Of a DNA stretch of 64,000 nucleotides, positions 967 to 52,847 are shown one piece after another (positions within the stretch are counted from its first letter, which is position 1; each line of letters opens with the position of its first letter). Source of the stretch: Bdellovibrionales bacterium (lineage in GTDB: Bacteria; Bdellovibrionota; Bdellovibrionia; Bdellovibrionales; DASUEL01); assembly GCA_050250255.1 (NCBI GenBank), contig JBFWOZ010000006.1:30887-94886 (forward strand), given 5' to 3'. The notes beneath the pieces were generated by a model. That model did no database searches, was not told where the DNA came from, and worked only from the letters and a program-made list of their open reading frames with translations. The position numbers and the translations under genes were made by a program.

Positions 967-1011
967 GCTACATTCCGTCGAATTGACTCGCAGGTACCAC
1001 TCTCTGACTCT

Positions 1012-18472: not shown

Positions 18473-18958
18473 TTAAAGTGTCGGGCAAGCGAAAGACAAA
18501 ATGCTCGTGAGTCTTTTTGTGCCTGTACGATATTTCGTTTTAATACTTCCCGCCCAGACCGATGGTTCGGTGTAGAAAATATTAATAGGCTCGCCGTTTC
18601 TATAAGCGTCTGCCTCATAGATCGTCGTCTGTGGTCCGCTCATGTCGTAACCACTTTCAAAACGTGCGCGTGTATCGATCGCCGCAATTTGTTCTTGAAG
18701 AATTTCCACTTCACGCCCGCCAATAGTGATATTTGTTTTTTCTGTTACTGTGAAATTTGGTTTCCCATCCACGTAATCTGTCTTCTCTATGAAAACACCT
18801 TCGGCTGTGATCACGCAAGCCTTTGAGGTATCCCACACCCATTTCCCATTCATTTCAAAAACGGTGCTTTGACGAAATTCCACCAGTCTCACACCCGTTG
18901 CATTCGCCGCACCCATAAGGAATGTTGTCGCCAAAAGAATATACAAAAAAAATTTCAT
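18473..18958 (-). CDS. Hypothetical secreted protein
   Basis: Signal peptide ending ANA, SD GGGAGG, two Cys. Confidence 0.75.
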   Translation of the reverse strand: MKFFLYILLATTFLMGAANATGVRLVEFRQSTVFEMNGKWVWDTSKACVITAEGVFIEKTDYVDGKPNFTVTEKTNITIGGREVEILQEQIAAIDTRARFESGYDMSGPQTTIYEADAYRNGEPINIFYTEPSVWAGSIKTKYRTGTKRLTSILSFACPTL

Positions 18959-25904: not shown

Positions 25905-26082
25905 CAAGATCCTCCACCACATTTATATGTAGTCGAAATTTTAATAACCGCTAGTAAAATTCCATCTGGTGCTAAAGTGACTTATTTTATAGCAGACCCA
26001 GACGCAAAAAAGACCTGTTACCTCTTGCAATGGTCACGCATTGACAATAAAGTCGCACTGAATTTGAAGAATTGGACAGCGA

Positions 26083-26181
26083 ATGAATCAACTTTGGATT
26101 GAGCCCGTAGGAAATATCATTATTGCGCGAGTGCGCGGCGTACCGACTGAAGTGCCCGCCGCCTTACGATGGTTCACCTAG
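26083..26181 (+). pseudogene. Possible 5' gene remnant (MNQLWIEPVGNIIIARVRGVPTE...)
   Basis: 32-codon ORF that reads like the start of a STAS/SEC14-like domain and then stops. Family assignment is from memory only. Confidence 0.35.
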
Positions 26182-26543
26182 TGATCGTTTCGGAATTCAC
26201 CCGAAAAGTGATGGATCAAATCCGCAAAATCCCTAAGGGGAAAGTCGCCACCTATAAACAAATTGCTGAACTTGCCAAGAAACCGTATGCCTCAAGAGGG
26301 GTTTCCTGGATTCTGCACTCCTGCTCCACAACTTACAAACTCCCTTGGCATCGCGTGATCAATTCTCAAGGAAAAATTTCTTTTGAGAAAGGAACATATA
26401 ATTTTCGCCAGCAAAAAAAGAAACTCGAGCAAGAAGGCGTTCTCCTTTCGACAGAGGGTCAACTGATTTTAAAGAAGTTTCAGTGGAAAAAACGTATCCC
26501 TAAGACAAGAAAAAAGAGCGGTTCTCCGAGTATGTTTCGTTAG
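26169..26543 (+). CDS. Alkyltransferase-like protein (ATL/MGMT family)
   Basis: IPKGKVATYKQIA and LPWHRVIN (Trp replaces the catalytic Cys). Confidence 0.9.
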   Translation: MVHLVIVSEFTRKVMDQIRKIPKGKVATYKQIAELAKKPYASRGVSWILHSCSTTYKLPWHRVINSQGKISFEKGTYNFRQQKKKLEQEGVLLSTEGQLILKKFQWKKRIPKTRKKSGSPSMFR

Positions 26544-26548
26544 CTCGG

Positions 26549-26564
26549 TGGAACTTATCTTGCA
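26549..26564 (+). promoter_or_regulatory. sigma54 promoter for yihY-like gene
   Basis: TGGAAC-TTATC-TTGCA. ATG 16 nt after the GC, no SD. Confidence 0.75.
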
Positions 26565-26579
26565 ATATTTAGCTCGATT

Positions 26580-27443
26580 ATGAAAACTCTTCGCTCAATA
26601 CTGTATAAAATCTCACAGCACGATATTTTGACTCACTCCGCGGCGCTGGCTCTATATACTGCGTTCTCTTTAGCCCCATTAATTATTTTGATGCTCTCAA
26701 TTCTTGCAACTCTGCAACTTGACTTACAAATTCAACTTTTAGCAAACGTTCAACAGCTAATGGGAACTGAAGCGGCTTCGGTACTCGATACGATTATTAA
26801 AAAATCTGAGGCGCGGGCTGATTTGTCATCCCTTGCGGGCTGGGTTGGCGTGATTACGCTACTTTTTTCAGCAAGTGCTATTTTTGCGCAACTGCAAAAT
26901 GCGATGAACGTTATTTTTGAATCCACCCCAGATACTCCAGCCAATATAAAATGGTATCATGAGGTTCGTCATATTGTTTTAAAGCGCATTGCTTCTTTTG
27001 GAATGGTTCTTTCTTTTGTGTTCTTATCCATTGTTTCGCTGGTGATTTCCTCTGCCCTTTCTTTTTTATTTTTAAATAATATTGGTCGCCTCGGCGAAAT
27101 CATCAATTTTAGTCTCAATCTCCTTGTTTTTACTCTTCTTTTTGGTGCCCTCTTTAAATGGATACCAGATAAAAGTATTCCCACAAAGTCGGCATTTGAG
27201 GGTGGTTTGCTCACCGCCCTCCTCTTCGTCATTGGAAAAGGAGTTATTGGTTTATATTTGGGTCAGACAGCCGTGGGCTCTGCCTATGGTGCGGCGGGGT
27301 CTTTGATTGTACTTTTGGTTTGGGTTTATTATTCATCTTTAATTGTATTTTTTGGAGCCGAGATTTGTGCTAAAAGAGCTTCATCGCAAAAAACTAAACT
27401 TAACTTGTTTTGGCTGAGAAACCATGTTAGCCCATCAACCTAA
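26580..27443 (+). CDS. YihY/BrkB family membrane protein
   Basis: AALALYTAFSLAP, SAYGAAGSLIVLLVWVYYSSLIVFFGAE. Confidence 0.92.
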   Translation: MKTLRSILYKISQHDILTHSAALALYTAFSLAPLIILMLSILATLQLDLQIQLLANVQQLMGTEAASVLDTIIKKSEARADLSSLAGWVGVITLLFSASAIFAQLQNAMNVIFESTPDTPANIKWYHEVRHIVLKRIASFGMVLSFVFLSIVSLVISSALSFLFLNNIGRLGEIINFSLNLLVFTLLFGALFKWIPDKSIPTKSAFEGGLLTALLFVIGKGVIGLYLGQTAVGSAYGAAGSLIVLLVWVYYSSLIVFFGAEICAKRASSQKTKLNLFWLRNHVSPST

Positions 27444-29657
27444 ATGAAGAGACCACCTTTCACTCCAGAAGTTAGCTTTGAGCAATTGACGCGGGCGAAC
27501 AAAGAGCTTTCACGGCTAGTGGCCGAAAAAGATGCAGTGGCAGAACGCCTTCGGGAGTCTCAGAGCTTTCTGGATTCCGTTATCGAGCACCTTCCCAATA
27601 TGATTTTTGTGAAAGACGCTCTGGAGCTCCGCTTTGTACGCTTCAATAAAGCGGGTGAGGAGCTTTTAGGACAAGCTCGAGAGAATTTGATCGGAAAAAA
27701 TGATTATGATCTTTTTCCAAAAGATCAGGCCGACTTCTTCACTGAAAAAGACCGGACCGTCCTGATGGATAAAATCGTCGTCGATATTCCCGAAGAGTCT
27801 ATTTCGACGCCTAAGGGCACCCGCATTCTCCATACTCGCAAAATTCCGTTGTTCGATAAAAACGGTGTTCCACAGTACCTTTTAGGGATTTCTGAAGACA
27901 TCACTGAGAAAAAAGAGAGCGAACTCCAAAAACTCGAACTCCTCCAGTCAGAACTTGCTCGTCAGGAGGCAGAAAGAAGCGCCTCACGCCTTTCCTTTTT
28001 GGCCGAAGCCAGCGCTGCCCTTAATGAATCTCTAGAAACAGAATACATGTTAAGCACGTTTGCCAATTCACTGATTCAGAACATGGCGGGCTGGTGCCTT
28101 ATCGATATTTACTCTGCAAAAGATCAAACCATAAAGCGACTCGCTACGTGGAAGACGGAGGTTCATTTTTCGCCAATTCCACCACACAGTTTTTTAAAAC
28201 ATAAAATTGATAAATTAACGACCGGTGGTGTTCTCGACGTTCTTCAAACAGGTCAACCCAAGCTTTACAAAACGCTCTCTTCTAAACTTCTCCGACAACT
28301 CACTTTTAACAATGCCTCACTGAATGAAGCCATATTGAAAAAGAAGATTCCATCCGCTATTATTGTTCCATTAATTTATCATGGCTCAACCCTTGGAGCG
28401 ATCACGCTCTTCTCACAAGATTCGGAACATATTTATAATGAACTTGATCTTTCCATTGCTCAAGATTTGGCTCGCAGGGCATCTCTGGCGATTGAAAATA
28501 CCAAACTATATGCTCGCGCCAATGAGGCGAGTCGGGCGAAGAGTGCGTTTTTAGCAAACATCAGCCACGAAATCCGCACTCCTTTAAGTGCGATGCTTGG
28601 TTTTGCAGAACTCGCGCTCGACAATGATCGTCCCATGGCAGAACAAAAACGGTACGTTTCAAAAATTGTTGAGAATGGAACGCAACTGCTTCAACTCGTA
28701 AACGAGGTGTTAGATCTGTCGAAAGTAGAATCCTCTCAACTACAAGTTGAAAAAATTGAATTTTCGCTTTCTAAACTTCTTGACGATGTCACGTCCCTCT
28801 TGCAAGTGAAGGCGAACGAGAAAGGTTTGCACTTAATGATTGAGGGAGACTCGACTCTTCCAAACAGCATTATTTCAGACCCCTTTCGTATTCGACAAAT
28901 TCTTATTAACGTTATTGGAAACGCCGTTAAGTTCACATCTAAAGGCTCTGTTCACGTCTCGGTCATGTTTCAAACCGAAAGCGCCTCGAAAGGAACGCTT
29001 GTTTTTTCTGTACAGGATACCGGCATTGGCATCGCACCCATGGAGGCAGAAAAACTTTTCGAACCTTTTCGTCAGGCAGATGAGTCTGTGGCACGCAAAT
29101 ATGGGGGCACGGGCCTTGGACTGTTTCTCTCACGAAAACTCTCACGGCTCCTCGGAGGAGATCTCAGCTTAGAGTTAAGTGTGCCTCAACAAGGATCTAA
29201 ATTTAAGCTTACACTTCCGGTGGAATATTCAACAAAACGAGCACCTGGAATCCCACCTCAAGATTTGCAGAAACATCCTTGCGATATACAGTCCCTTTCA
29301 GGAAAAATTCTTGTCGTTGAAGATTCCCTAGATAATCAGCTTCTCGTGAAAGCTTTTTTGGAGAAAACAGAAGTTTCTATTGATTTTGCAAACAATGGAA
29401 ACGAAGGACTTTCAAAAGCTTTAGCCAATCATTACGATATCGTAATGATGGACATACAAATGCCAGAAATGGACGGCTTTGAAGCTGTGAAACGGCTACG
29501 CGATTTAGGTTATCAAGGATGTGTCGTCGCTTTGACTGCACACGGAATGAAAGGCGATCGAGAGCGCTGTTTAGAGCAGGGCTTTGATGATTATATCTGC
29601 AAGCCTTTTAGCCGTAGCATGCTGACGAACTTTGTAAATCAACATCTCCTCAATTAG
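27444..29657 (+). CDS. Cytoplasmic hybrid histidine kinase (PAS-GAF-HisKA-HATPase-REC)
   Basis: PAS (IFVKD...LIGKNDYDLFP), GAF (IIVPL...AQDLARRA), SHEIRTPL, GGTGLGL, receiver MDIQMPEMDG. Confidence 0.93.
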   Translation: MKRPPFTPEVSFEQLTRANKELSRLVAEKDAVAERLRESQSFLDSVIEHLPNMIFVKDALELRFVRFNKAGEELLGQARENLIGKNDYDLFPKDQADFFTEKDRTVLMDKIVVDIPEESISTPKGTRILHTRKIPLFDKNGVPQYLLGISEDITEKKESELQKLELLQSELARQEAERSASRLSFLAEASAALNESLETEYMLSTFANSLIQNMAGWCLIDIYSAKDQTIKRLATWKTEVHFSPIPPHSFLKHKIDKLTTGGVLDVLQTGQPKLYKTLSSKLLRQLTFNNASLNEAILKKKIPSAIIVPLIYHGSTLGAITLFSQDSEHIYNELDLSIAQDLARRASLAIENTKLYARANEASRAKSAFLANISHEIRTPLSAMLGFAELALDNDRPMAEQKRYVSKIVENGTQLLQLVNEVLDLSKVESSQLQVEKIEFSLSKLLDDVTSLLQVKANEKGLHLMIEGDSTLPNSIISDPFRIRQILINVIGNAVKFTSKGSVHVSVMFQTESASKGTLVFSVQDTGIGIAPMEAEKLFEPFRQADESVARKYGGTGLGLFLSRKLSRLLGGDLSLELSVPQQGSKFKLTLPVEYSTKRAPGIPPQDLQKHPCDIQSLSGKILVVEDSLDNQLLVKAFLEKTEVSIDFANNGNEGLSKALANHYDIVMMDIQMPEMDGFEAVKRLRDLGYQGCVVALTAHGMKGDRERCLEQGFDDYICKPFSRSMLTNFVNQHLLN

Positions 29658-29744
29658 TCTTCGTCCCTAAATCCCTTTTTTGTTCATAAATCCCTTTTTA
29701 CCCCTGCCCCTCTGCGAGGAAGGTCGGTATTTTCTTTTTAAGAG

Positions 29745-29760
29745 CGGTATGTAATGTGCT
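29745..29760 (+). promoter_or_regulatory. sigma54 promoter
   Basis: CGGTAT-GTAAT-GTGCT (GG-N10-GC). Confidence 0.55.
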
Positions 29761-29791
29761 TCATTTTAAAAAAAAAGAGGGAGGCTTTGCC

Positions 29792-30097
29792 ATGCAACAA
29801 CAGTCAATCCATTCACAAAAAACTTATAAAACAACAAACTTAGCTGCAGCTTGTGATAACTGCGGCAACTTCTATAAGAATTCATTTCGTGTCCTTATGC
29901 AAAATGAGGAATTTATTTTTGACAGCTTTGAATGTGCCATCAATAAACTAGCACCGCGCTGTGAACATTGTAATTCGCGAATTATTGGTCACGGAGTAGA
30001 GACGCACTTTGATGGCGCTGATCATATATTTTGTTGCGGACACTGTGCAGATTCTATGGAAACGTCAGACGTTGTAGATAAATCCTGGGAAGAGTAA
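29792..30097 (+). CDS. Small Cys/His-rich metal-binding protein (metallothionein-like family)
   Basis: CDNCGN, FDSFECAI, CEHC, IIGHGVE, FCCGHCA. SD GGGAGG. Confidence 0.82.
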   Translation: MQQQSIHSQKTYKTTNLAAACDNCGNFYKNSFRVLMQNEEFIFDSFECAINKLAPRCEHCNSRIIGHGVETHFDGADHIFCCGHCADSMETSDVVDKSWEE

Positions 30098-30121
30098 CCC
30101 CCCAGGATTTTGAATTGTGAA

Positions 30122-30250
30122 TCAATGTCCACGAATAAGAAAAATGAGAAACAAAACACTCGCTGGCACACCAAGGAGCCAGGCAATCAAATAACCAATG
30201 CGTCCTTCAATATTGGATAATCTTTGTAACAATTTATTGTTTTTATCCAT
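30122..30250 (-). CDS. 42-aa single-TM small protein (not in the ORF track)
   Basis: MDKNNKLLQRLSNIEGRIGYLIAWLLGVPASVLFLIFLIRGH*. SD GGAGG and its own sigma54 promoter. Confidence 0.78.
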   Translation of the reverse strand: MDKNNKLLQRLSNIEGRIGYLIAWLLGVPASVLFLIFLIRGH

Positions 30251-30278
30251 TTTTCCCTCCAAACCTAATGAGTGAACT

Positions 30279-30294
30279 AGCAACATAAATGCCG
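30279..30294 (-). promoter_or_regulatory. sigma54 promoter for the 42-aa protein
   Basis: Minus strand CGGCAT-TTATG-TTGCT. Confidence 0.75.
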
Positions 30295-30379
30295 ACGCGT
30301 ATCACGTTCAAAGGCCCATTTTAAACGCCTTGCAGCGTTTTTATGGGACAAAAAGGTACTTCGCATTGGCTAAAATCCC

Positions 30380-30841
30380 CTACCTTGTAGGTGTCACCGT
30401 TGGCCCAACACTCAGTTTGTTTTCTACAGCCGTCACGCCGTTCATTGTGCGTGCGCGTTCAAGAATTCGGTCAGCCTCGCTTTGCGAGTTAACAACTCCC
30501 TCAATAATCACACGACCACCGGTACTAGTAATGTTCACGTTATTTAAATTGTCCGTAGGGACGTTTGTTCTTAGGTCCTGCATGACTCGTCGGTTGAGTG
30601 CTGTATCTTCGGGTGTTGGCACATACACGTGGGATGTCTGCGGGGGCGGCACCACTTGAGGAAACGGTGTCTGCGGTGTTGAAAGTGTTTGTGGCACCGT
30701 CTGAATACCTTGAGACGGTGTTGTCTGCAGATTATTTTGTGTGTTCTGCGCTACCTGACGTGTTTCTGTTTTTGCCATGAGTGACGAGCTGAACATCAAT
30801 ACACTTCCAAGAGCGAAGAAAAAGTTTTTTTTATTAATCAT
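30380..30841 (-). CDS. Secreted BON-domain (OsmY-like) protein
   Basis: Signal peptide, Q/T/P linker, DTALNRRV...GRVIIEGVVNS...GVTAVENKL. Confidence 0.88.
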   Translation of the reverse strand: MINKKNFFFALGSVLMFSSSLMAKTETRQVAQNTQNNLQTTPSQGIQTVPQTLSTPQTPFPQVVPPPQTSHVYVPTPEDTALNRRVMQDLRTNVPTDNLNNVNITSTGGRVIIEGVVNSQSEADRILERARTMNGVTAVENKLSVGPTVTPTR

Positions 30842-31002
30842 ATATTTCTGTCCTTTCTATACAAGATTCATAATCTTCAATGCAAAAAGTGTGATCATCA
30901 AAATCAGACGTGGAAGAACTCCACTCCTGTTTTGTTTTGGGACTTTTTTCCTTATTTTCTATTGTGGTTTGTACGCCTTTTATCTCTCAATCTCAGAGGT
31001 TT

Positions 31003-31018
31003 TGGTCTTTGCCTTGCA
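31003..31018 (+). promoter_or_regulatory. sigma54 promoter
   Basis: TGGTCT-TTGCC-TTGCA. Confidence 0.7.
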
Positions 31019-31050
31019 CATCTCTGCTGTATAACTGAAAAGGAGATTTC

Positions 31051-31656
31051 ATGACTCAAACAAGTTCAAAAAAATTAATTATTGGGGCTGTGCTTCTGCT
31101 TGCACTGTTTTTAATTGTTCTTTCAATGCCTCGAGCAAATGCTCAGGGAACATCTGAAACTGTATTCCCATCACCTCGTGCTGTTGAAGCTAACGAATGG
31201 CAACCTCATTTTGGTGTACGTGGTGGTTACTCAAATCCAGACGATAATTTTAATGGAGCCGCAGAGTACGGACTTGAAGCTGGATTTCAGCCTTACGTTC
31301 CGTTCGGCGTAGGTCTTGAGTTTACGCGTTCTGTTTCTGAAAGTTCGGTTTCAAAGCCTGACCTTGAAAGAACAGCGGTTCTCGCAAAAGGAACTTATAA
31401 CTTTGGAGGAACGCTTCCTATTATTCGAACCAGTTTCCTGGGATTGGGTTTAGGACCGGTGTTCGATCACAACGACAACAAGGATTCAACACGTCTTGGA
31501 TTCAACTTACTCGGTGGATTTGATATCCCTCTAGATGAACAGATGGGTCTTGGACCAAACAGCTTTTCTCTTGGAGCCGTGGCGAACTACTTATTTGTAA
31601 GTACCGATGGACCAGATACTCTTGGTCTCAACGGCACACTAAAATATTGGTTCTAA
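31051..31656 (+). CDS. Small outer-membrane beta-barrel protein
   Basis: Signal peptide, Gly/aromatic amphipathic strands, C-terminal LKYWF. Confidence 0.8.
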   Translation: MTQTSSKKLIIGAVLLLALFLIVLSMPRANAQGTSETVFPSPRAVEANEWQPHFGVRGGYSNPDDNFNGAAEYGLEAGFQPYVPFGVGLEFTRSVSESSVSKPDLERTAVLAKGTYNFGGTLPIIRTSFLGLGLGPVFDHNDNKDSTRLGFNLLGGFDIPLDEQMGLGPNSFSLGAVANYLFVSTDGPDTLGLNGTLKYWF

Positions 31657-31672
31657 TCTAAAAAGAAATTTA

Positions 31673-32209
31673 TTAAGCCCAACGGAGAAATTCGTTGGGC
31701 TTTTCTCTTTCTTCCATGACCGTCTCCCAAACAGCAGATTCATTTAAAGTGTTGATTTCTTGAGCGCCTGTTCTTTCTAAAACATTTTTAGCTAAAACAG
31801 TTTGCTGAGATCCTTCCGTGTGCACCGAAACAAGAATGCCACCACCCTTTACGTAGTGACCATATCTTCGTGACACGCGTTCGGGAGTACCAATACCTAC
31901 GAGAGTACCGCTAACACCCCCATAGATTCCGCCAAACGCTGCTCCTACAAGCGCGTAAGCGAAAACGCCCGTGACCATAAAGGTTAGGCCACCAACAAGA
32001 ATGATCCCCAGCGCTCCACCAATCAATAAACCTTCTTTAATAAGATTGATTTCACGGTAAGCCATGTCCTGGTTTTTTTTTGCATTTTTAGGGAACAATA
32101 CAGAAATCTCAGAAGAGCCAAATCCCATTCTTCTTAATGCGTGAAGAGCTTTCTTTAGTTCTTCTGTGTTACTATATATTCCAAATGCTGCTGTATTTGT
32201 ATTTTCCAT
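31673..32209 (-). CDS. General-stress-protein-like membrane protein (GSP17M/DUF3341-like, glycine zipper)
   Basis: AFGIY...ALRRMGF...ISVL, Gly-zipper TM hairpin, GGILVSVH...VLERTGA. Start re-placed at MENTNT directly after a sigma54 site. Confidence 0.78.
   Translation of the reverse strand: MENTNTAAFGIYSNTEELKKALHALRRMGFGSSEISVLFPKNAKKNQDMAYREINLIKEGLLIGGALGIILVGGLTFMVTGVFAYALVGAAFGGIYGGVSGTLVGIGTPERVSRRYGHYVKGGGILVSVHTEGSQQTVLAKNVLERTGAQEINTLNESAVWETVMEEREKPNEFLRWA
31675..31710 (+). terminator. Rho-independent terminator
   Basis: AAGCCCAACG-gagaaatt-CGTTGGGCTT followed by TTCTCTTT. Confidence 0.7.
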
Positions 32210-32222
32210 AGATAGTGGTAAG

Positions 32223-32238
32223 AGCAGCATCCGTGCCA
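32223..32238 (-). promoter_or_regulatory. sigma54 promoter
   Basis: Minus strand TGGCAC-GGATG-CTGCT. ATG 14 nt after the GC, no SD. Confidence 0.78.
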
Positions 32239-32340
32239 AAATGAAAATGAAATAAAGTGCACAAAGCCCGCCTACTTCAGTATTTCGAGGCTTTTTTCCA
32301 CGCTCGATTTTTTTGCTCAAAGACTTAATGAAACTGACCG

Positions 32341-32356
32341 TGGTCTTTCCCTTGCA
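32341..32356 (+). promoter_or_regulatory. sigma54 promoter
   Basis: TGGTCT-TTCCC-TTGCA, 15/16 identical to the site at 31003. Confidence 0.7.
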
Positions 32357-32371
32357 TCCCAACTGTGTGGA

Positions 32372-32434
32372 GTTGCGATTCTTGCTACAGATGGGTTTGA
32401 AGAGTCGGAATTACTTGAGCCTAAGTCAGCTCTC
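32372..32434 (+). pseudogene. Remnant of a PfpI/DJ-1 (YhbO-like) gene
   Basis: Translates VAILATDGFEESELLEPKSAL, the typical PfpI N-terminus. No canonical start and no continuation. Confidence 0.78.
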
Positions 32435-32481
32435 ACAACAAGCCGTATCCCGGAATGCGGCCAATTAAAAAGGAGTTTAAT

Positions 32482-32727
32482 ATGAAAAAAAGAAGCACAA
32501 GTAAACAGATCGGTACAGAAAATTCTGAACACCACGGACAACCCAAGGATGTTGAACGTCGTTTTAATACACAGCCTTCTCGGGCTGATGAAGAAGATTT
32601 TTCTCGATATGCAAGTGGTGGCGACTATGTCCCCCTCGAGGATGAAGATTTAAATGAAAGAGCACCCGCAAGTGATAAAAAACGCTTCCACCGAACGGGT
32701 CAACCCTATCGATCTCAACACAATTAG
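32482..32727 (+). CDS. Small hydrophilic, probably disordered protein
   Basis: SD AAGGAG, 81 aa, highly charged, followed by a terminator. Confidence 0.65.
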   Translation: MKKRSTSKQIGTENSEHHGQPKDVERRFNTQPSRADEEDFSRYASGGDYVPLEDEDLNERAPASDKKRFHRTGQPYRSQHN

Positions 32728-32739
32728 AACCCATTTCAT

Positions 32740-32767
32740 AAAAAGGCGATGGGAACCATCGCCTTTT
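32740..32767. terminator. Bidirectional terminator
   Basis: AAAAGGCGATGG-gaa-CCATCGCCTTTT between convergent genes. Confidence 0.85.
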
Positions 32768-32792
32768 ACTTTCTGTAGTACCAAAAAAAGAA

Positions 32793-33068
32793 TTAGTCCT
32801 TTTTCAAATCATCAACTTTGTCTTTGATTTCATCTTGTGCCTCTTCCACTTTATGCTTTACTTTGTTTTTAGCACACTCCAATTTTCCATTCACCATCTC
32901 ACACGCCTTATCTTTTACCTTATGATACGCTTGTTTAGCATTTTTCTTCGCATCTCGACCTGCCTCTTTAACAGTTTCTTTCACAGAGTCTTGAGCAAAT
33001 GCTGATGATGCGGCTAAAAGAGCCATGGCGAGAGACAACGCTAGGGTGTTTATGATTTTTTTCATCAA
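32793..33068 (-). CDS. Small secreted K/A/E-rich helical protein (LEA/CsbD-like)
   Basis: Signal peptide ending AFA, amphipathic helix, CEMVNGKLEC pair. Confidence 0.78.
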   Translation of the reverse strand: MMKKIINTLALSLAMALLAASSAFAQDSVKETVKEAGRDAKKNAKQAYHKVKDKACEMVNGKLECAKNKVKHKVEEAQDEIKDKVDDLKKD

Positions 33069-33111
33069 TACCTTCTTTCTTTATTTTGGTTATTGAACGA
33101 TGTGAAGTTAC

Positions 33112-33127
33112 TGCAAGTTACAAACCA
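33112..33127 (-). promoter_or_regulatory. sigma54 promoter
   Basis: Minus strand TGGTTT-GTAAC-TTGCA. Confidence 0.68.
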
Positions 33128-33173
33128 AGTGAAAACTGCGGTTTTTTTATATCCTGTCGGGCGAATTGCCTCG

Positions 33174-33189
33174 TGGCACCCTTCCTGCA
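33174..33189 (+). promoter_or_regulatory. sigma54 promoter
   Basis: TGGCAC-CCTTC-CTGCA. Confidence 0.78.
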
Positions 33190-33212
33190 CAATTTAGAAT
33201 AAGGAGGCTAGT

Positions 33213-33656
33213 ATGGAAACCGGCACTGTTGGCTACAATGAAAAGAAGAAAATTTATTCCTTTAAAAAAGCATCCATTAAGCAATTCTTTGATATTTTTA
33301 AAGCCGCACTTACGGAGGGCGATCCTCAGGTCCTCTCTCAACTCTTTGCTACACCCTGTTTTGTCTTGGGAGATGAAATGACTCGAGTTGTACAATCACC
33401 TCAAGAAGTTTTGGAGTTTTTTGGGGGCGCCAAAGAAGAGTATAACAAAATGGGCATCACCGAGACTCGAGCGGATATTGAAGGTACCGACTGGATAACC
33501 GAAAAAATTGTCATTGTGGAAGTTCGATGGCCCCATCTTGATAAACAGGGAAAAGAGCACGGCTCTGAGGCATCCTCTTATATTTTAAGACTCGATGGCA
33601 ACGGAGATTTAAAAATTCAAGCGGTCGTCATGCACGGAGTTTCTACATCCCATTAG
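33213..33656 (+). CDS. NTF2/SnoaL-like fold protein
   Basis: SD AAGGAGG. FFDIFKAALTEGD...LFATP, VEVRW, SSYILR...LKIQAV pattern. Confidence 0.7.
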   Translation: METGTVGYNEKKKIYSFKKASIKQFFDIFKAALTEGDPQVLSQLFATPCFVLGDEMTRVVQSPQEVLEFFGGAKEEYNKMGITETRADIEGTDWITEKIVIVEVRWPHLDKQGKEHGSEASSYILRLDGNGDLKIQAVVMHGVSTSH

Positions 33657-33739
33657 TGGAATAATGGGGCACATATAATTACGTGGGGATTTTCTCCTCG
33701 TTCATTTTTATCTTTTTCATTTTTATTGCATTTAAATAT

Positions 33740-33755
33740 TGGCAATGGTTTTGCT
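33740..33755 (+). promoter_or_regulatory. sigma54 promoter
   Basis: TGGCAA-TGGTT-TTGCT. ATG 14 nt after the GC, no SD. Confidence 0.8.
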
Positions 33756-33768
33756 TCTATACATCTGA

Positions 33769-34602
33769 ATGTTAGAAGACGTTCAAGCTTCAAAACATTT
33801 GTACGCTCCCGCTGAGTTTCTCGAAACTCCCACACTTTTGAGTGTCAACACCCAATGCGCTCCCTTTGGATCTGCTTATGAGGTGACTCGCATTTCTCAG
33901 GATATTCAAAATTTCGTCGGACAAAAAAATTATCCTTGTGTGGCCGCTATTCAATCCACATTTCGCAAAGACTTTCGAGTTGGTGTTTATCGTGACTTCG
34001 GCTTTGGTTCTTCTTGGAGCGCCTTAAGGAATGATCTTCAATACTTTTTAAGAGAACAGCAACGATCGGGATCTGCCTACCTCACTTTTTGGGCTGTGTA
34101 CTTGGATACCCATGAAGCGACCGAAAAAGATTTCGAAAACGCTCTCTGGAACGAACTTTCTTCGCTCACCTCAGAAGAAGATCGAGAAGCCGATTGGTCA
34201 GATAAAACAAGAGTGGATCCTAAAAATAAATCTTTTCACTTTTGCCTCGATGGTACCTCTTTTTTTGTTGTAGGACTTCATCCTAATAGCTCACGCAAAG
34301 CCTGCCGTTTTCCACATCATGCACTCGTTTTCAACGTCTTTTCTCAATTTGAAAGTTTAAAGGCAAGCGGAAGCTTTGATCCTCTCGTTCAAAAAATTCG
34401 CGAGCGTGACCTTGTTTTTGACGGATCTGTAAACCCGGTCGCCGCCCAACATGCAGAGGTTTGGGAGTCTATTCAATTTTCAGGTAAAAACAACCCTTCA
34501 GACTGGCAGTGTCCTTTTCAATTTAGGAAGAAAAAAGACAAACCTCCAAGTCGTTTTTGGAGTCATAAAAATGGCACGCCACAAGCAAAACCGGTGGCGT
34601 AA
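33769..34602 (+). CDS. YqcI/YcgG family heme-dependent guanidine N-hydroxylase-like protein (DcsA/GntA-like)
   Basis: YPCVAA, FENALWNEL, FFVVGLHPNSSR, LVFN...QFE, WQCPF. Confidence 0.85.
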   Translation: MLEDVQASKHLYAPAEFLETPTLLSVNTQCAPFGSAYEVTRISQDIQNFVGQKNYPCVAAIQSTFRKDFRVGVYRDFGFGSSWSALRNDLQYFLREQQRSGSAYLTFWAVYLDTHEATEKDFENALWNELSSLTSEEDREADWSDKTRVDPKNKSFHFCLDGTSFFVVGLHPNSSRKACRFPHHALVFNVFSQFESLKASGSFDPLVQKIRERDLVFDGSVNPVAAQHAEVWESIQFSGKNNPSDWQCPFQFRKKKDKPPSRFWSHKNGTPQAKPVA

Positions 34603-35737
34603 GTCCTCTCGTTGGATTCTTCTTGGTGTTATTCTTTTTCTCATAGCTCTACGCCTGGCGCTTCCACCTATTGGTCTTTGGGCGATTAACCGCTCTCTTG
34701 CTACAAAGCTAGATAAGTACACGGGACAACTTGCAGATTTTGATTTGAGTTTGTATCGAGGCGCTTATCAACTTCAGGGCTTAGAAATCAAAAAGAAAAA
34801 TAGTCAGTTGCCACCTCTGTTGCAGGTAAAAGAAATCGATCTCTCTTTAGCTTGGCGTGCAATTTGGGATGTTTGGATGAAAAATGATGTCTCTGCAGAC
34901 ATCACGCTTATAGAAGCTCGCATTCATCTCCTAGATGATAAGAAAGCTGAAAACAAACAATTCGGTACGGATGAGGATAACGGCTGGGGAGATGTTTTAG
35001 ATGTTCTTATCCCAATGAAAATAGAAACTCTAACGGTGAGAAATTCGGCCGTTTATTTCAATCATGGAGATATTAAAACCCCACTTCCGGTTAGAATCGA
35101 AGGACTAGACTTTCAAACTTTGGATCTTCGAAGTAGGCCACGAAGAAATAAAAAGGCATTGAGCGCTTTTTCCGGGAAAGCAACAATACAGGGACATGCC
35201 ATGCTTGAAACAAAGGGTGGCATTGATCTCGTCTCTCGACCAGAAAGACTAGATTTGGATCTTAAAATTGAAGGATTCGAAATGAATTCCATCAACACTT
35301 ACCTCAGGCACTACGTCCCTCTCGATATCACCCAGGGGAAGCTCAACCTATACGTTGAAACTGCGGGCTCCCGTGAAGATCTTAAAGGCTATGCTAAGGT
35401 TTTTCTTTCTGACTTAGATATTATTGCTCATAAACAAGAATATGTTTCAGTGAAACATTTTGCTTACGAATTGCTCTCCGCTTTCGGAGGCTGGGTTTTA
35501 AAAAATTCCAAAAGTAGAAATGTTGCAAGCTACGTTCCTTTTGAGCAAAAAAAAAATTCTTTCAATGTGGATACCTCAGAGGCCTTTTGGTCTTCAGTGG
35601 AAAATATGTGGGCTCGAATGCCAAAGGGGTTTGATCATTCTATCGAATTGGATACAGGTGTTCGAGAGGTCCCAAAAAAATCTTCTATTACAGAAGGCTC
35701 AGCTGATCTCCAGGCCGCTGAAACAGATCCGTTCTAA
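34571..35737 (+). CDS. DUF748 (AsmA-like) membrane-anchored protein
   Basis: N-terminal TM, RLALP, DLSLYRGAY, DLSLAWRA. Start re-placed at MARHK. Confidence 0.8.
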   Translation: MARHKQNRWRKSSRWILLGVILFLIALRLALPPIGLWAINRSLATKLDKYTGQLADFDLSLYRGAYQLQGLEIKKKNSQLPPLLQVKEIDLSLAWRAIWDVWMKNDVSADITLIEARIHLLDDKKAENKQFGTDEDNGWGDVLDVLIPMKIETLTVRNSAVYFNHGDIKTPLPVRIEGLDFQTLDLRSRPRRNKKALSAFSGKATIQGHAMLETKGGIDLVSRPERLDLDLKIEGFEMNSINTYLRHYVPLDITQGKLNLYVETAGSREDLKGYAKVFLSDLDIIAHKQEYVSVKHFAYELLSAFGGWVLKNSKSRNVASYVPFEQKKNSFNVDTSEAFWSSVENMWARMPKGFDHSIELDTGVREVPKKSSITEGSADLQAAETDPF

Positions 35738-36770
35738 GTTGATAGGTTTTTTGGTTTAAGCCATATTTTTTGCAAAAGAGATGAAACATTTGTCGCAAGT
35801 TATCGGCTTGCTCACCCTGCCCGCGCATTCTGGATCCAAAATTTGAATCGTTGATTTTACCGCCACGCATATCACGAATCAAATGAAGGACTCGTTCTTT
35901 TGCTAGAGGACGATTTTGTTCTAGCCACTCTGTAAAAATAGAGCTCACAGAATATGGTAATCTTAATGGAACATATCCTGCCGACCACGCACCGGCCTCC
36001 GCAGCTGCTTTTAAAATGGATGGCATTTCGTGATCGGTAAGTCCTGGAATCACCGGCGCCACATTTACTCCCACCGGAATTCCTGCCTCACTCAAAGAAC
36101 GAATGGCGCGAAGCCGTGCCTCAGGCGTTGATGTTCGTGGTTCAAGAACACGAGCTAATTCGGTATCAAGTGTTGTCACAGAAATATACACAACAACCAA
36201 CTCATATTCTGCCAATCGCTTCAAAACATCGATGTCTCTTGCGACAAGATGATTTTTCGTTATAAGTCCTGCGGGTTGCCGAAATTCCTCAAGCACTTCA
36301 AGGCATTGACGAGTCAGACGAAAACGCGCCTCTGCGGGCTGATAACAATCTGTGACTCCACTAACCATAATGCACTCTGGCTGCCAGTTTTTAGACATCA
36401 ATTTTTCTCGAAGTAAATCTGGAGCATTTTCTTTTACAAAAATTTTAGATTCAAAATCTAAACCCGCCGACATACCGAGGTATTCATGTGTGGGCCTCGC
36501 GTAGCAGTAGGCACAGCCATGCTCACAGCCACGGTAGAAATTCATGCTGTAACGAAAGCCTATGTCAGGGCTATCGTTTTCATTAACGATGGAACGCGAA
36601 CTATCTCTATAAAAAATTGTTTTAATTTTGGAATCGTCATGAAACCATTGGTCCGTATCCTGCAGGTCAAGTGGCGGGGGTTCTATTTGAAGATGATCAA
36701 AACGACCCGTTTGGTTGCCTACGGCTCCGCGTCCACGCTGTACGTTTTTTTTGTTTTCATTTTCAACCAT
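35688..36770 (-). CDS. PA0069/Rv2578c-family radical SAM protein (SPL-like)
   Basis: GRGA, NDSPDIGF, YRGCEHGCAYCYARP, TDCYQPAE, LEPRTS, FGSRMRGQG. Confidence 0.92.
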   Translation of the reverse strand: MVENENKKNVQRGRGAVGNQTGRFDHLQIEPPPLDLQDTDQWFHDDSKIKTIFYRDSSRSIVNENDSPDIGFRYSMNFYRGCEHGCAYCYARPTHEYLGMSAGLDFESKIFVKENAPDLLREKLMSKNWQPECIMVSGVTDCYQPAEARFRLTRQCLEVLEEFRQPAGLITKNHLVARDIDVLKRLAEYELVVVYISVTTLDTELARVLEPRTSTPEARLRAIRSLSEAGIPVGVNVAPVIPGLTDHEMPSILKAAAEAGAWSAGYVPLRLPYSVSSIFTEWLEQNRPLAKERVLHLIRDMRGGKINDSNFGSRMRGQGEQADNLRQMFHLFCKKYGLNQKTYQLRTDLFQRPGDQLSLL

Positions 36771-36896
36771 CGAAGGAGAATAGCACTTTTTTCTTGATCC
36801 TCCCTAGTCCAGATCAGGAAAAAATCTATGTTGATGTCAAAATAGGTTATAAGAAGTAGCGAACTTTAAATTTAATTAAAATAATAAGGAGAAATT

Positions 36897-37382
36897 ATGA
36901 ACTCACAAAATCAGTATATTGATATTGGAATTCCCGAACAACAGAGAAAAGAAATTGCAGCAGGTCTTTCCCGCCTCTTAGCAGATACCTATACTTTGTA
37001 TTTGAAGACACACAATTTCCATTGGAACGTGACTGGACCTATGTTCCAAACTCTTCATCTCATGTTTGAAGCTCAATATAATGAACTCGCACTGGCGGTA
37101 GATCTGATTGCTGAACGAATCCGAGCGTTAGGTGTATATGCGCCGGGAAGTTACGCGGATTACGCTAAGCTCTCTACGATTAAAGACGCGGTCGGAGTAC
37201 CACACGCAAAAGATATGATTAAAGAGTTGGTCGAAGGACAAGAAGCTGTTGTAAGAACCGCGCGTGCAATTTATCCCACCGTAGAAAAGTCACACGATGA
37301 AGTTTCGGCCGATCTCCTCACGCAACGCATGACCGTTCATGAAAAAACGGCGTGGATGCTACGAAGCCTTCTTCAAGATTAA
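36897..37382 (+). CDS. dps: Dps DNA-protecting ferritin-like protein
   Basis: [46 protein letters not shown]. Confidence 0.96.
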
Positions 37383-38938
37383 GGGTAACGAGAATTAATG
37401 GTTGTCGCGAGAGCATTCAAATCGAGAGCGCGACAGCCCTTTACTTTTCCGGCTAACGTGGACATTAATTCTGACGAATCTCCCAGCAAAGTTTCTATGA
37501 GCGCTGGCGTGGCAGATCCGCCTCTCGTAGTGATAAAACCGTAAGCTAGCGCTGCCGCTCCCGCGACCACCGGCGAAGCCATCGATGTCCCCTGAAGTCG
37601 ACCATAAGTATTTGCCAGCATAGTTGAAAGAATCCCTAAACTTGAAGAATCATTTCCAGGAGCGCTGATCTCTACAAAAGAGGCGCTGTAGTTAGAGTAA
37701 CTCGATAGCGCTTCATCGCTAACGCTGACAGCTGCAACGGCCATAGCTCCGTTTAAAGCTTTTCCATAACTCGCAGGAGAAAACCAAAGTGACTCCGTTA
37801 GCTCCACACTACTGTTGCCCGCAGCCATGATCACCGTGACGCCCGCATCGACCGCCGCCGTTAGCGCAGAAGAGTATGTCGAAGATTTTCCAACTCCGCC
37901 TAAGCTCAAGTTAATAATTCTTGCACCATTATTAATGGCGTAGAGAATCGCATTTCCTATGTTGCTTGAAGAGGCACCTTCGCTCGCACCAAATACATTG
38001 AGATGCATGATTTGCACATTTTGTCCCATCACACCCGCAACGCCAGTACCGTTGTCCCAACGTGCTGCTGAAATACCGGCCACGTGTGTTCCATGAACTT
38101 CACCCCCCGAGGACCAAGAAATAGGAGAGGGATCTGCGATATCGCTCGCGAAATTATATCCGTACAGATCATCCACATAACCATTGCCATCGTCGTCTGT
38201 TGCGTTGGATGCCACTTCATCAGAATTCAGCCAACGGTTTGCCAACAAGTCGTTATGTGCATGAGCGCCACCCGTATCAATGATGGCGATAACGGTGGTC
38301 GATGTAATTCCGTTCGTAGAATGAAAAAAAGTATCCCATGACGCCGATGAATTGATTGCCGTGTGATGTGCTTGTGAAGAAAAATTTGAATCATTGGGCG
38401 TGACCGAAGGATACGCGATCACCGCATTGGAAACTTCTATGAGGCAGGGATCTCGTGCCGCTTCTCTTGCCACATCCATCACCGACATATCGTAAGGAGC
38501 CTCCCATTGAAAATAGCGAAGTGGGAGTTTTGTATTTTGAAAAACCTGAGGCTCCACTTTCTCTCTTAAGGCAAATGTTCTTAAATCTGCAGAGCTCTGC
38601 TCTGAAAGACATTGAAGATCATAAAGAACATCTAATTTTGTCTCGTGAGAGAGTTTGAGAGCTTTCGGTTCAAAGGCGGAGTTCCAAAAATACGACTGCG
38701 CTAAAGAACCTCGTAGGCTTGAGGCGCCTGCGACAACAACAACATGTGGATCTAATTTTAATTTTCCAGCGACAATCATATCCTCTTCAAGCTGCTGAAT
38801 ACTTACCGGAGGAGCATCCGTATAACTGCAGCTTGCACTTGAGAGATTGCTATTGGCGGGATTTGATCCCAGAAGGCTATTCGCAGAGCAACCCGCGATA
38901 CTTGCAATTCCCATTAACGCGATCAAAAGACGAGACAT
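37379..38938 (-). CDS. Subtilisin-like S8 protease, lipoprotein
   Basis: Lipobox IAGC. Catalytic triad AIIDTG / HGTHVAG / GTSMASP. Confidence 0.93.
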
Positions 38939-40138: not shown

Positions 40139-41869
40139 TTATCGAGCTTTTTTCAGTGCGGCGAGGACATCTGCAGCTCCACCCGTAACCGTTAAGCTGT
40201 CAAATGCGACCACGTTCTTTTCACCAGTCACGCTTGGCTTATAAACTTCTAAGCCTGGGTATGCGCGAGCGGTTGAAAGAACCAATTCTCGCACTTTTTC
40301 TCCCGTGAAGTTCGGGTGCTGAGAAAGAATCAAAGCTCCGACTCCCGCCACACACGGACCCGCCATGCTGGTACCGGAAAATGCAGCGTACTGATTTCCA
40401 GGAACGCTCGAAAGAACTTCAAAACCAGGAGCAAAAATATCCACAGTTTCTTTTCCGTAATTAGAAAAATAAGCCGGAAGATTGAGCCCTTTTGTTTTTG
40501 AAGAAGCTGCCACCTCAATCCAGTTAGGAATGATGTCCGCAACAGACGCCTTTACATGTTTGTTTGGAAAATTGTTTTTATCTGTGTTGAGTTTAGCATC
40601 ATTACCAGCAGAGTGAATGATTAATACACCCTTACTTGCAGCATACATAAACGCTTCGTCCACTTTTGTTTTGAGTGGAGAATAACCCTTACCAAAGCTC
40701 ATGTTAATCACGCGAGCTCCATTATCTGTCGCGTAACGAACGGCATTGGCGATATCTTTATCGTACTCATCACCATTTGGTACAGCTCGAAGCGCCATGA
40801 TGCGAACATCTGTTGCGATTCCATCGATTCCCAAATTATTTCCACGAACCGCACCAATAATACCGGCAACATGTGTTCCATGGTCTGCGCCCGGACCTTC
40901 AACGTCGTTATTTCCGTATCCGCGCTGTTGTTCAACCCTGTAAGGGTTATCACCGATGATCTGTTTCCTCGGGTCAAAGCTCTCATTGAAGTAGTATTTC
41001 AATTGATCATCATATCTTTGGAGAAGAACATCCAGACGAGCGGTGTTCGTTAAGTTATTCTTTTTGAACAACTCAATGAATTCTGCCTGAGCCATTTTTC
41101 TCACTTCTTCTGTCGGCTGAAGAGCCGTCACCATCGCCAAAGTTACTTTTTCAAATTCAACCGCGAGCAAAGTTTTAAGAACTTCGTAACGTGCCTTCAT
41201 AGCATCTTTAATGCCCTGTACCTTTGCGGTCGATGTTGTCGCGTCTGTGCGCGCCTTTGCAACCTCAGCATCCAGGTGAGCCAAGTAAGCCGCTTCTTCT
41301 TCAGAGAGCTCTCTTTTTACTTTCAACTTTTTCATACGAACAAGCTCGCGAGTGACCTCAAGAGTGGTTGCATCGATATGAACAGGCTTGCCTGTCTTGT
41401 CGACACTTCCAAGAAAGTTCCAACCGTGAATATCGTCGACATATCCGTTTTTATCGTCATCGATATTATTAGAAGCTTTATTTCTTCCATTTTTATCAAC
41501 GCCTGTCTCTCCAGGATTTTTCCAGATGTGAGCCGCGAGATCTTCATGCTCAATGTCGATACCGCTATCAATCACCGCAACAAGAATAGGCTCTACACCC
41601 GTTCTTAAGTTTAAGTCGATGTAAGCGCGATCTGCACTCACTCCCTCAATACCGTCTATTTCGGGATCTTTTGTGACCCATGTGCCTGTTGTCTCAACAC
41701 CAGGTTTCTGCGGAACATCTGTTGTTTCTGCAGAGCGATCGCCTTTCGCATTAATCGGCTCTTGATCTAATGGCCGCGAAGATTCTTGTTTGGAACACGC
41801 GCCCAAAAATAAACTCGCAATCACCAAAGATGCAGCGAATAATGATCGGCAAGGTTGTGTATTTATCAT
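40139..41869 (-). CDS. Subtilisin-like S8 protease, lipoprotein, with helical insert
   Basis: Lipobox LGAC. AVIDSG / HGTHVAG / GTSMAGP. RAVPNGDEYDKD. Confidence 0.94.
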   Translation of the reverse strand: MINTQPCRSLFAASLVIASLFLGACSKQESSRPLDQEPINAKGDRSAETTDVPQKPGVETTGTWVTKDPEIDGIEGVSADRAYIDLNLRTGVEPILVAVIDSGIDIEHEDLAAHIWKNPGETGVDKNGRNKASNNIDDDKNGYVDDIHGWNFLGSVDKTGKPVHIDATTLEVTRELVRMKKLKVKRELSEEEAAYLAHLDAEVAKARTDATTSTAKVQGIKDAMKARYEVLKTLLAVEFEKVTLAMVTALQPTEEVRKMAQAEFIELFKKNNLTNTARLDVLLQRYDDQLKYYFNESFDPRKQIIGDNPYRVEQQRGYGNNDVEGPGADHGTHVAGIIGAVRGNNLGIDGIATDVRIMALRAVPNGDEYDKDIANAVRYATDNGARVINMSFGKGYSPLKTKVDEAFMYAASKGVLIIHSAGNDAKLNTDKNNFPNKHVKASVADIIPNWIEVAASSKTKGLNLPAYFSNYGKETVDIFAPGFEVLSSVPGNQYAAFSGTSMAGPCVAGVGALILSQHPNFTGEKVRELVLSTARAYPGLEVYKPSVTGEKNVVAFDSLTVTGGAADVLAALKKAR

Positions 41870-52415: not shown

Positions 52416-52847
52416 TTATTTTAGTTTTAACAAGATACGTCTTTTAGGATTAAATTGAACCCGCCCATCGGCAAAGTTTCGCTTTACTTCTTCAACAAGA
52501 AGATTGTTTTCAAAAAAGAAAGACTGACTTGTTTTGTATGAAAGACCATCATGGGATGTCTGCCAATTGAAGTTCATTTTTTGACCAGTCCAATTCGTCT
52601 TAAAAGTAGCATAACCGTCTAAAATTGGACGACCCTGTTCATCAGCCATTGAAATACTAACTTGTTCACACCCATCTTGTAGAATCACCTTGTGTTCAGA
52701 ATATTGTACTGTCTCTACAGGTGAATTTTCCTGATACTGAATTTGAATCACTCTATAATGACCGCTTAGATTAGGACAGGAATCTGCCTTTGATTGATAA
52801 GATGCCACAAGCAGCACACACAAACTAAACACAGACATTTTAATCAT
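52416..52847 (-). CDS. Hypothetical secreted beta-rich protein
   Basis: Signal peptide, then CPNLSGHY. SD AAGGAG. Confidence 0.75.
   Translation of the reverse strand: MIKMSVFSLCVLLVASYQSKADSCPNLSGHYRVIQIQYQENSPVETVQYSEHKVILQDGCEQVSISMADEQGRPILDGYATFKTNWTGQKMNFNWQTSHDGLSYKTSQSFFFENNLLVEEVKRNFADGRVQFNPKRRILLKLK

Follow-up and report, generated by a model that had tools for sequence, protein, structure and literature searches.

A candidate RpoN-dependent general-stress regulon in a Bdellovibrionales genome

Described stress regulons and the window island

Target families such as BON/OsmY, DUF1328 and YflT belong to the general stress regulons of RpoS, SigB and EcfG, which use a dedicated sigma-70-family factor. 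In the 64,000-nucleotide stretch of a Bdellovibrionales genome analyzed here (the window), an island of genes of this type at positions 26549..35737 carries boxes for RpoN (sigma-54) instead; no dedicated factor of the RpoS, SigB or EcfG kind was found in the genome, and control by RpoN together with an ATPase activator is predicted. The LuxO-LuxU phosphorelay of Vibrio runs from hybrid kinases through a stand-alone Hpt protein to a sigma-54 activator, and LuxO drives small RNAs for quorum sensing. The activator proposed here, an NtrC-type protein encoded on a different contig (C24), is predicted to share this relay layout but scores only 351 bits against a LuxO-family cut-off of 800.

Sigma-54 promoters are described as needing an ATP-driven activator bound upstream (PMC3162934), and such activators have been tied to stress before. 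Nla28 of Myxococcus xanthus, which works with a sensor kinase and is in its authors' description a general regulator of starvation-stress genes, is a sigma-54 enhancer-binding protein with a dispersed regulon of about 70 candidate promoters; its sites are given as tandem 8-bp half-sites, CT(C/G)CG(C/G)AG, whereas the candidate sites here are 17-bp palindromes with an A/T core, and its reported targets are regulatory, metabolic and envelope genes (PMC9765219). The C24 protein is set beside Nla28 by description and not by orthology; our de novo motif search was limited to palindromes, and Nla28 half-sites were not scanned for. The three-component system of DVU3305 in Desulfovibrio vulgaris also has a sigma-54 response regulator and the label 'general stress response', but is reported to involve a few operons (Usp-type, membrane and transport genes) and a Lon-domain partner (PMC3333781, PMC4641369); the passages that describe it do not mention an Hpt protein, and those of PMC4641369 do not name CsbD. 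The EcfG-NepR-PhyR system resembles the present case in the target families csbD and ku-ligD, which together with osmC are described as direct EcfG targets in Sphingopyxis (PMC7083833). Stress-linked sigma-54 activators are already known from Nla28 and DVU3305. The present case departs from them in its set of classic general-stress genes, in an activator clade linked to Hpt and in a phased palindrome, all within an order that lacks RpoS. The general-stress families encountered in this genome are YihY, BON, YflT-like, DUF1328 and Ku-LigD, and CsbD is found beside orthologues of the activator.

We consider it probable that the island genes are switched on together by the C24 activator as part of a general stress or starvation response that operates without RpoS. 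The preliminary description had assigned the general-stress role to an RpoN regulon, and this part of it gains support from the intact RpoN, the failure to find RpoS, SigB or EcfG, the second island with a conserved activator and the shared palindrome. Such a regulon is predicted to resemble a general stress regulon in its working and yet to fall outside the RpoS, SigB and EcfG families. A wider proposal, to which we give slightly less than even credence, is that many Bdellovibrionales possess a fourth general-stress architecture in which hybrid kinases would feed one Hpt protein and one sigma-54 activator with a dispersed, palindrome-marked regulon. No published account of this regulon was found in the literature searched, in which subscription papers were thinly covered, and the same literature yielded no explanation of how predatory Bdellovibrionales survive between prey without RpoS. 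The analysis names a candidate activator, models its binding site and lists its predicted targets. If the proposal is correct, promoters of an ATP-gated class can take over genes of the classic general-stress type, which could bear on the shelf life of Bdellovibrio as living antibiotics.

Promoter boxes, a shared palindrome and a putative activator

Ten GG-N10-GC sites, each numbered by its leftmost base, had been claimed in the island. Nine are present, with GG starts at 26550+, 29746+, 30293-, 31004+, 32237-, 32342+, 33126-, 33175+ and 33741+; the spacing is exact in all nine and each lies upstream of, and co-oriented with, a gene. The tenth, the 'degenerate' site at 30881-, was rejected, as it has AT in place of GG despite a good -12 element. 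A box matrix seeded with a consensus pattern, with the CAC positions left free, was trained on leaders lying entirely outside the island (genes were called genome-wide with a simple self-trained caller) and converged to TGGCAC-N5-TTGCW (104 sites). With this matrix eight island boxes score 11.3-15.5 bits, and 29746 is weak at 6.7 bits. Scores of at least 10 bits are reached by 133 of 1859 leaders genome-wide against 14.5 in shuffles, so that the RpoN matrix scan against shuffled controls proposed in the preliminary description gives an approximately nine-fold excess. Motif density upstream of island genes is above background (8/12 island leaders versus 125/1847 elsewhere; Fisher p 2e-7), and none of 2000 permutations reaches the observed clustering of eight in 11 consecutive leaders; the island is the densest cluster in the genome. 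In 913 tandem leaders there are 71 sense and only eight antisense matches, while sigma-70-type sites remain at chance level (18 versus 17.6).

The genome (3.09 Mb, 99.2% complete, Bdellovibrionales-like) encodes RpoN on contig C61 (477 aa, TIGR02395 above cut-off), with region I and the RpoN box intact. The other sigma factors are RpoD, an RpoH-like protein, FliA and four members of the extracytoplasmic function (ECF) group, and none of these seven sigma-70-family genes is above the RpoS, SigB or named ECF cut-offs. EcfG was not found as judged from NCBIfam scores alone, PhyR and NepR not having been searched for. None of 61 genomes of the order passes the RpoS cut-off, and RpoS is absent from the sigma list given for B. 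bacteriovorus in PMC11209729.

The absence of an enhancer-binding protein from the window, as previously noted, extends to its whole contig, which has no PF00158 protein; all 13 enhancer-binding proteins of the genome lie on other contigs. The second densest box cluster, on C24, contains nine boxes (8.9-17.8 bits) that precede DUF1328, BON, YflT-like, hemerythrin and truncated CsbD-like genes, and it surrounds a CHASE hybrid kinase, an Hpt protein, a REC protein and the NtrC-type activator (G000:C24:33358-34752) that probably serves the window boxes. This protein comprises REC, PF00158 and HTH_8 domains and has the loop GSFTGA, which keeps the F and T of the GAFTGA type; it scores below the NCBIfam cut-off for all 25 families shown, with LuxO, NtrC, AtoC and ZraR among those tested. 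Its closest named relatives are Bdellovibrionales. In a quick-mode, midpoint-rooted tree that left out three of the 13 own activators (C93, C16 and C15) and a few loci, it belongs to a clade of 45 rows (support of 100 in the Shimodaira-Hasegawa-like approximate likelihood-ratio test, SH-aLRT) in which all named rows but one are Bdellovibrionota and the recognition helix is constant (IDRKTLY[RK][RK]). The receiver residue D57 is invariant in the sequence set A1. Of 201 genomes searched in the order, 76 have an orthologue, as do 16 of 26 within one genus, and the module is found in the cultured Bdellovibrio isolates L074, L077, L080 and L081. In HD100, Bd2145 and Bd2147 are adjacent at the site that holds the module in YOA24, so the module seems to be missing at this site, the remainder of HD100 not having been searched. 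The 140 attack-phase promoters listed for HD100 (PMC3627812 Table S2), judged by eye and not scored, show no clear -24/-12. Clade loci of at least 10 kb contain Hpt (28/32), CsbD (16/32) and DUF1328 (15/32) genes, compared with 0/37 control regulator loci, a comparison that favours the clade since the profiles were built from its members.

Two further observations concern this locus and its relatives. The CsbD-like gene beside the activator (L028:6679-6786, on C24) stops after 35 codons and looks truncated; it still has a strong box (17.8 bits) and a palindrome (11.7 bits). A locus labelled Nitrosovibrio (L070) has an activator nested in the Bdellovibrionota clade, together with Hpt and boxes, and represents either a mislabelled bin or gene transfer.

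A palindrome-constrained Gibbs search without positional prior, applied to 58 promoters from relatives alone, yielded the 17-bp motif YGDGGMA-WWW-TKCCHCR. An independent search of this genome's own promoters, from C24 and from single genes, arrived at the same motif, which also picked out the window island although this had been held out. Matches of at least 7 bits at 35-100 bp are found at 6/9 window promoters, 7/8 C24 promoters and 12/106 other sigma-54 promoters, and their centres cluster 47, 58, 69 and 80 bp upstream of the GG, one helical turn apart. Among 85 promoters of named Bdellovibrionales loci, none of them used in training, 41 carry the palindrome, with phasing at about 10.5 bp (R 0.59, versus 0.16 at periods 8 and 9; nominal p 6e-7, which is overstated as related genomes are not independent). 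The palindrome is commonest in divergent island spacers (9/10), an enrichment that argues against a terminator. Genome-wide, 26 promoters, including that of ku-ligD, pass both the box and the palindrome filters. The shared, phased palindrome supports a link between the two islands as a candidate enhancer. The features of the window island are as follows.

26550..26563, +, sigma-54 box of 13.7 bits, separated by 16 nt from the yihY ATG; lacks a good enhancer within 35-105 bp
26580..27443, +, YihY/BrkB inner-membrane protein (Pfam PF03631, E 4e-43)
27444..29657, +, PAS-GAF-HisKA-HATPase-REC hybrid histidine kinase; abuts yihY and is likely co-transcribed
29746..29759, +, weak sigma-54 box, 6.7 bits, without enhancer
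29792..30097, +, Cys-rich TRASH/zinc-finger-like small protein; homologues at 3/51 relatives' activator loci
30122..30250, -, 42-aa membrane peptide; homologues at 3/51 activator loci
30280..30293, -, sigma-54 box, 15.1 bits
30344..30360, no strand, candidate enhancer site scoring 9.2 bits, centred 59 bp upstream of the 30293 GG
30380..30841, -, BON/OsmY-domain protein, secreted; no GG in the box claimed for it (30882-30895)
30909..30925, no strand, second candidate enhancer site, scoring 10.2 bits and lying 87 bp upstream of the 31004 GG
30938..30954, no strand, candidate enhancer site scoring 11.0 bits and lying 58 bp upstream of the 31004 GG
31004..31017, +, sigma-54 box, 15.1 bits
31051..31656, +, small beta-barrel-like protein of the outer membrane; matched to OMP_b-brl clusters with an Atlas feature score of 0.97, no Pfam match
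31673..32209, -, YflT/GSP17M-like membrane protein; PF11181 below cut-off, paralogue in the C24 island
32224..32237, -, sigma-54 box, 15.0 bits, 14 nt before ATG
32286..32302, no strand, strongest island enhancer candidate, 15.8 bits; 57 bp from 32237- and 48 bp from 32342+, two divergent boxes that have it in common
32342..32355, +, sigma-54 box of 14.9 bits, with 126 nt between it and the ATG
32482..32727, +, hydrophilic protein of 81 aa, assigned to no family and without homologue in the 51 activator loci
32793..33065, -, 90-aa secreted Lys/Ala-rich protein, LEA (late embryogenesis abundant)-like by composition; homologues often beside relatives' activator gene
33113..33126, -, sigma-54 box, 11.3 bits
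33157..33173, no strand, candidate enhancer site scoring 12.6 bits; its distances to 33126- (39 bp) and to 33175+ (10 bp) are both out of the usual phase
33175..33188, +, sigma-54 box, 15.5 bits
33213..33656, +, DUF6841 NTF2-like protein
33684..33700, no strand, candidate enhancer site scoring 13.7 bits and lying 49 bp upstream of the 33741 GG; can also be read as a terminator-like hairpin
33741..33754, +, sigma-54 box, 14.6 bits, 14 nt before ATG
33769..34602, +, YqcI/YcgG-family protein (Pfam PF08892; NCBIfam NF041366 above cut-off)
34571..35737, +, DUF748-like protein; overlaps the yqcI end, likely same operon

The 32793 family tracks the activator: its homologues occur in 56/75 activator-bearing and 19/125 other genomes, and among those checked in activator-bearing genomes 14/26 have their own box, 12 of these with a palindrome. 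In 51 relatives' activator loci, homologues of window genes include the 32793 protein (in ten), the YflT-like protein (in seven), the barrel, the 42-aa peptide and the Cys-rich protein (three each), and YihY and BON (one each). A search of relatives' loci with the YflT-like protein alone gave no matches.

In the proposed mechanism, RpoN holoenzyme would sit closed at each box while one or more hybrid kinases pass phosphate to the Hpt protein encoded beside the activator and from there to receiver residue D57. The activator would then bind YGDGGMA-WWW-TKCCHCR at 47, 58, 69 or 80 bp from the GG, on a constant DNA face, and its use of ATP would open the promoter. The trigger may be starvation or general stress, as homology to known regulons more weakly suggests. 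The predicted regulon includes the window island, the C24 island (DUF1328, BON, YflT-like, hemerythrin and the CsbD-like remnant), ku-ligD, an SRPBCC-ADH-SDR operon, cyanophycin synthetase and several unknown genes. The window kinase, likely transcribed from the yihY box, could provide positive feedback. This PAS-GAF kinase had earlier been put forward as a possible input to the regulon; as a dedicated input it was rejected, since its sole match at an activator locus is a 28% PAS match and relatives have no close counterpart of its sensor part next to their activator.

Alternative explanations

Several observations weigh against a dedicated stress regulon of this kind. RpoN is not stress-dedicated in this genome: about 125 further leaders carry sigma-54 boxes, most of them before secreted-looking (signal-peptide-like N-termini, judged by eye), flagellar and pilin genes rather than stress genes. 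They may form a large RpoN regulon that takes in the predatory secretome; with RpoN shared in this way, specificity would have to come from the activator. A well-placed palindrome is missing from the yihY, 29792 and 33213 promoters, no valid box precedes the BON gene, the window dps has no sigma-54 box and the island contains no PfpI, that label having been mistaken. Outside the islands the palindrome is found at only 4/12 hand-picked single stress genes, with osmC and katG both below the threshold. Conservation at orthologues, examined in directly upstream DNA of the top 29 or all 25 matches, is gene-dependent: the box is kept in 14/29 for the 32793 family and in far fewer for YihY (2/29), the YflT-like protein (5/29), the Cys-rich protein (9/29) and YqcI (3/25), and operon-internal position may explain part of these low values. 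In B. bacteriovorus HD100 the mapped dps start has no -24/-12 element by eye (PMC3627812 Table S2). The window kinase is one of nine hybrid kinases, the genome has three Hpt proteins and, as stated above, cross-genome p-values are overstated. The activator is missing from 125 of the 201 genomes searched and therefore cannot be the universal stress switch of the order.

The same promoters and activator could instead drive a programme of the life cycle (entry into prey, exit or a resting form) in place of a response to many stresses, which we regard as unlikely. In its favour, secreted or envelope proteins follow the majority of this genome's sigma-54 boxes, the island genes are mainly envelope or unknown genes, the detoxification genes dps, osmC and katG mostly lack the palindrome, and Bdellovibrio is reported to have repurposed FliA as a global attack-phase regulator (PMC3627812). 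However, CsbD, DUF1328, BON and YflT-like genes beside the activator, together with ku-ligD, are general-stress markers elsewhere, and a patchy module, present in 16 of 26 genomes of one genus, fits an accessory survival kit better than a core step. Somewhat less likely still, the boxes could be real but read by another or several enhancer-binding proteins, or the palindrome could bind another factor. The genome offers 13 candidate activators, three window promoters are without a well-placed palindrome, the helix ISRRTLYRK of the sister paralogue C52:425 resembles IDRKTLYRR and in L058 a sister-group regulator has palindrome-like sites next to it, the last two points also counting against the C24 protein as the sole reader of the motif. 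On the other hand, the promoters from which the motif was derived flank the C24 clade, all four C52 boxes fail the palindrome filter and the 32793 family tracks the C24 clade.

It is very improbable that the boxes are chance matches in A/T-rich spacers and the palindromes terminator hairpins, even though the 33684 site is also terminator-like, box 29746 is weak, 30881 is invalid and the genome contains 390 palindrome matches of at least 10 bits. The excess over shuffles, the strand bias of 71 to eight, the clustering beyond all 2000 permutations, the helical phasing and the enrichment in divergent spacers all argue against it. Control of the island by the C24 activator as part of a general stress or starvation response is the reading that we prefer.

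Gene labels and further observations

Of the gene labels in the preliminary description, YihY, BON and Dps are confirmed, with Dps lying downstream of the island. The GSP17M-like protein does match YflT/GSP17M but below the Pfam cut-off (E 0.0017), and the 'CsbD/LEA-like' 32793 protein is LEA-like by composition with no CsbD match, an Atlas score of 0.78 being only a lead. The YqcI/YcgG protein (33769-34602) passes the NCBIfam cut-off for GntA, the family name for a guanitoxin N-hydroxylase, which most likely reflects just the broad family. Beyond the island, a PA0069-family radical SAM gene (35688-36770) is divergent from dps (36897-37382), both without a sigma-54 box, and a second dps lies on C8 (L036:3117-4069) behind osmC and a box.

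Elsewhere in the window and outside the island, at 991-3027, 18473-18958, 40139-41869 and 52416-52847, further strong boxes for sigma-54 (17-18 bits) precede genes for secreted-looking proteins, one of them a subtilase. Genome-wide, sigma-54 boxes pile up 13-17 nt ahead of the ATG; cases in the window are 26550-26582, 32207-32237 and 33741-33771. A Shine-Dalgarno word is present in 0/17 leaders with this spacing compared with 76/104 longer leaders, and a class of nearly leaderless sigma-54 mRNAs is predicted, including those of yihY, the YflT-like gene, yqcI and ku. The unusually long 5' leader ahead of the 81-aa gene contains hairpins (32366-32470). As a small RNA, this 126-nt leader of 32482 was rejected, with a folding z of -1.8, equalled by 8/200 shuffles, and no Rfam match in 26000-37500.

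On contig C52, a locus (L034; G000:C52:1-18259) encodes a further pair of enhancer-binding proteins, surrounded by Hsp20 genes and by genes that by eye are CBS-like and Usp-like. One of the pair is the sister paralogue of the C24 activator (C52:425), and the four sigma-54 boxes of the locus are all without a palindrome; it is probably a separate stress regulon.

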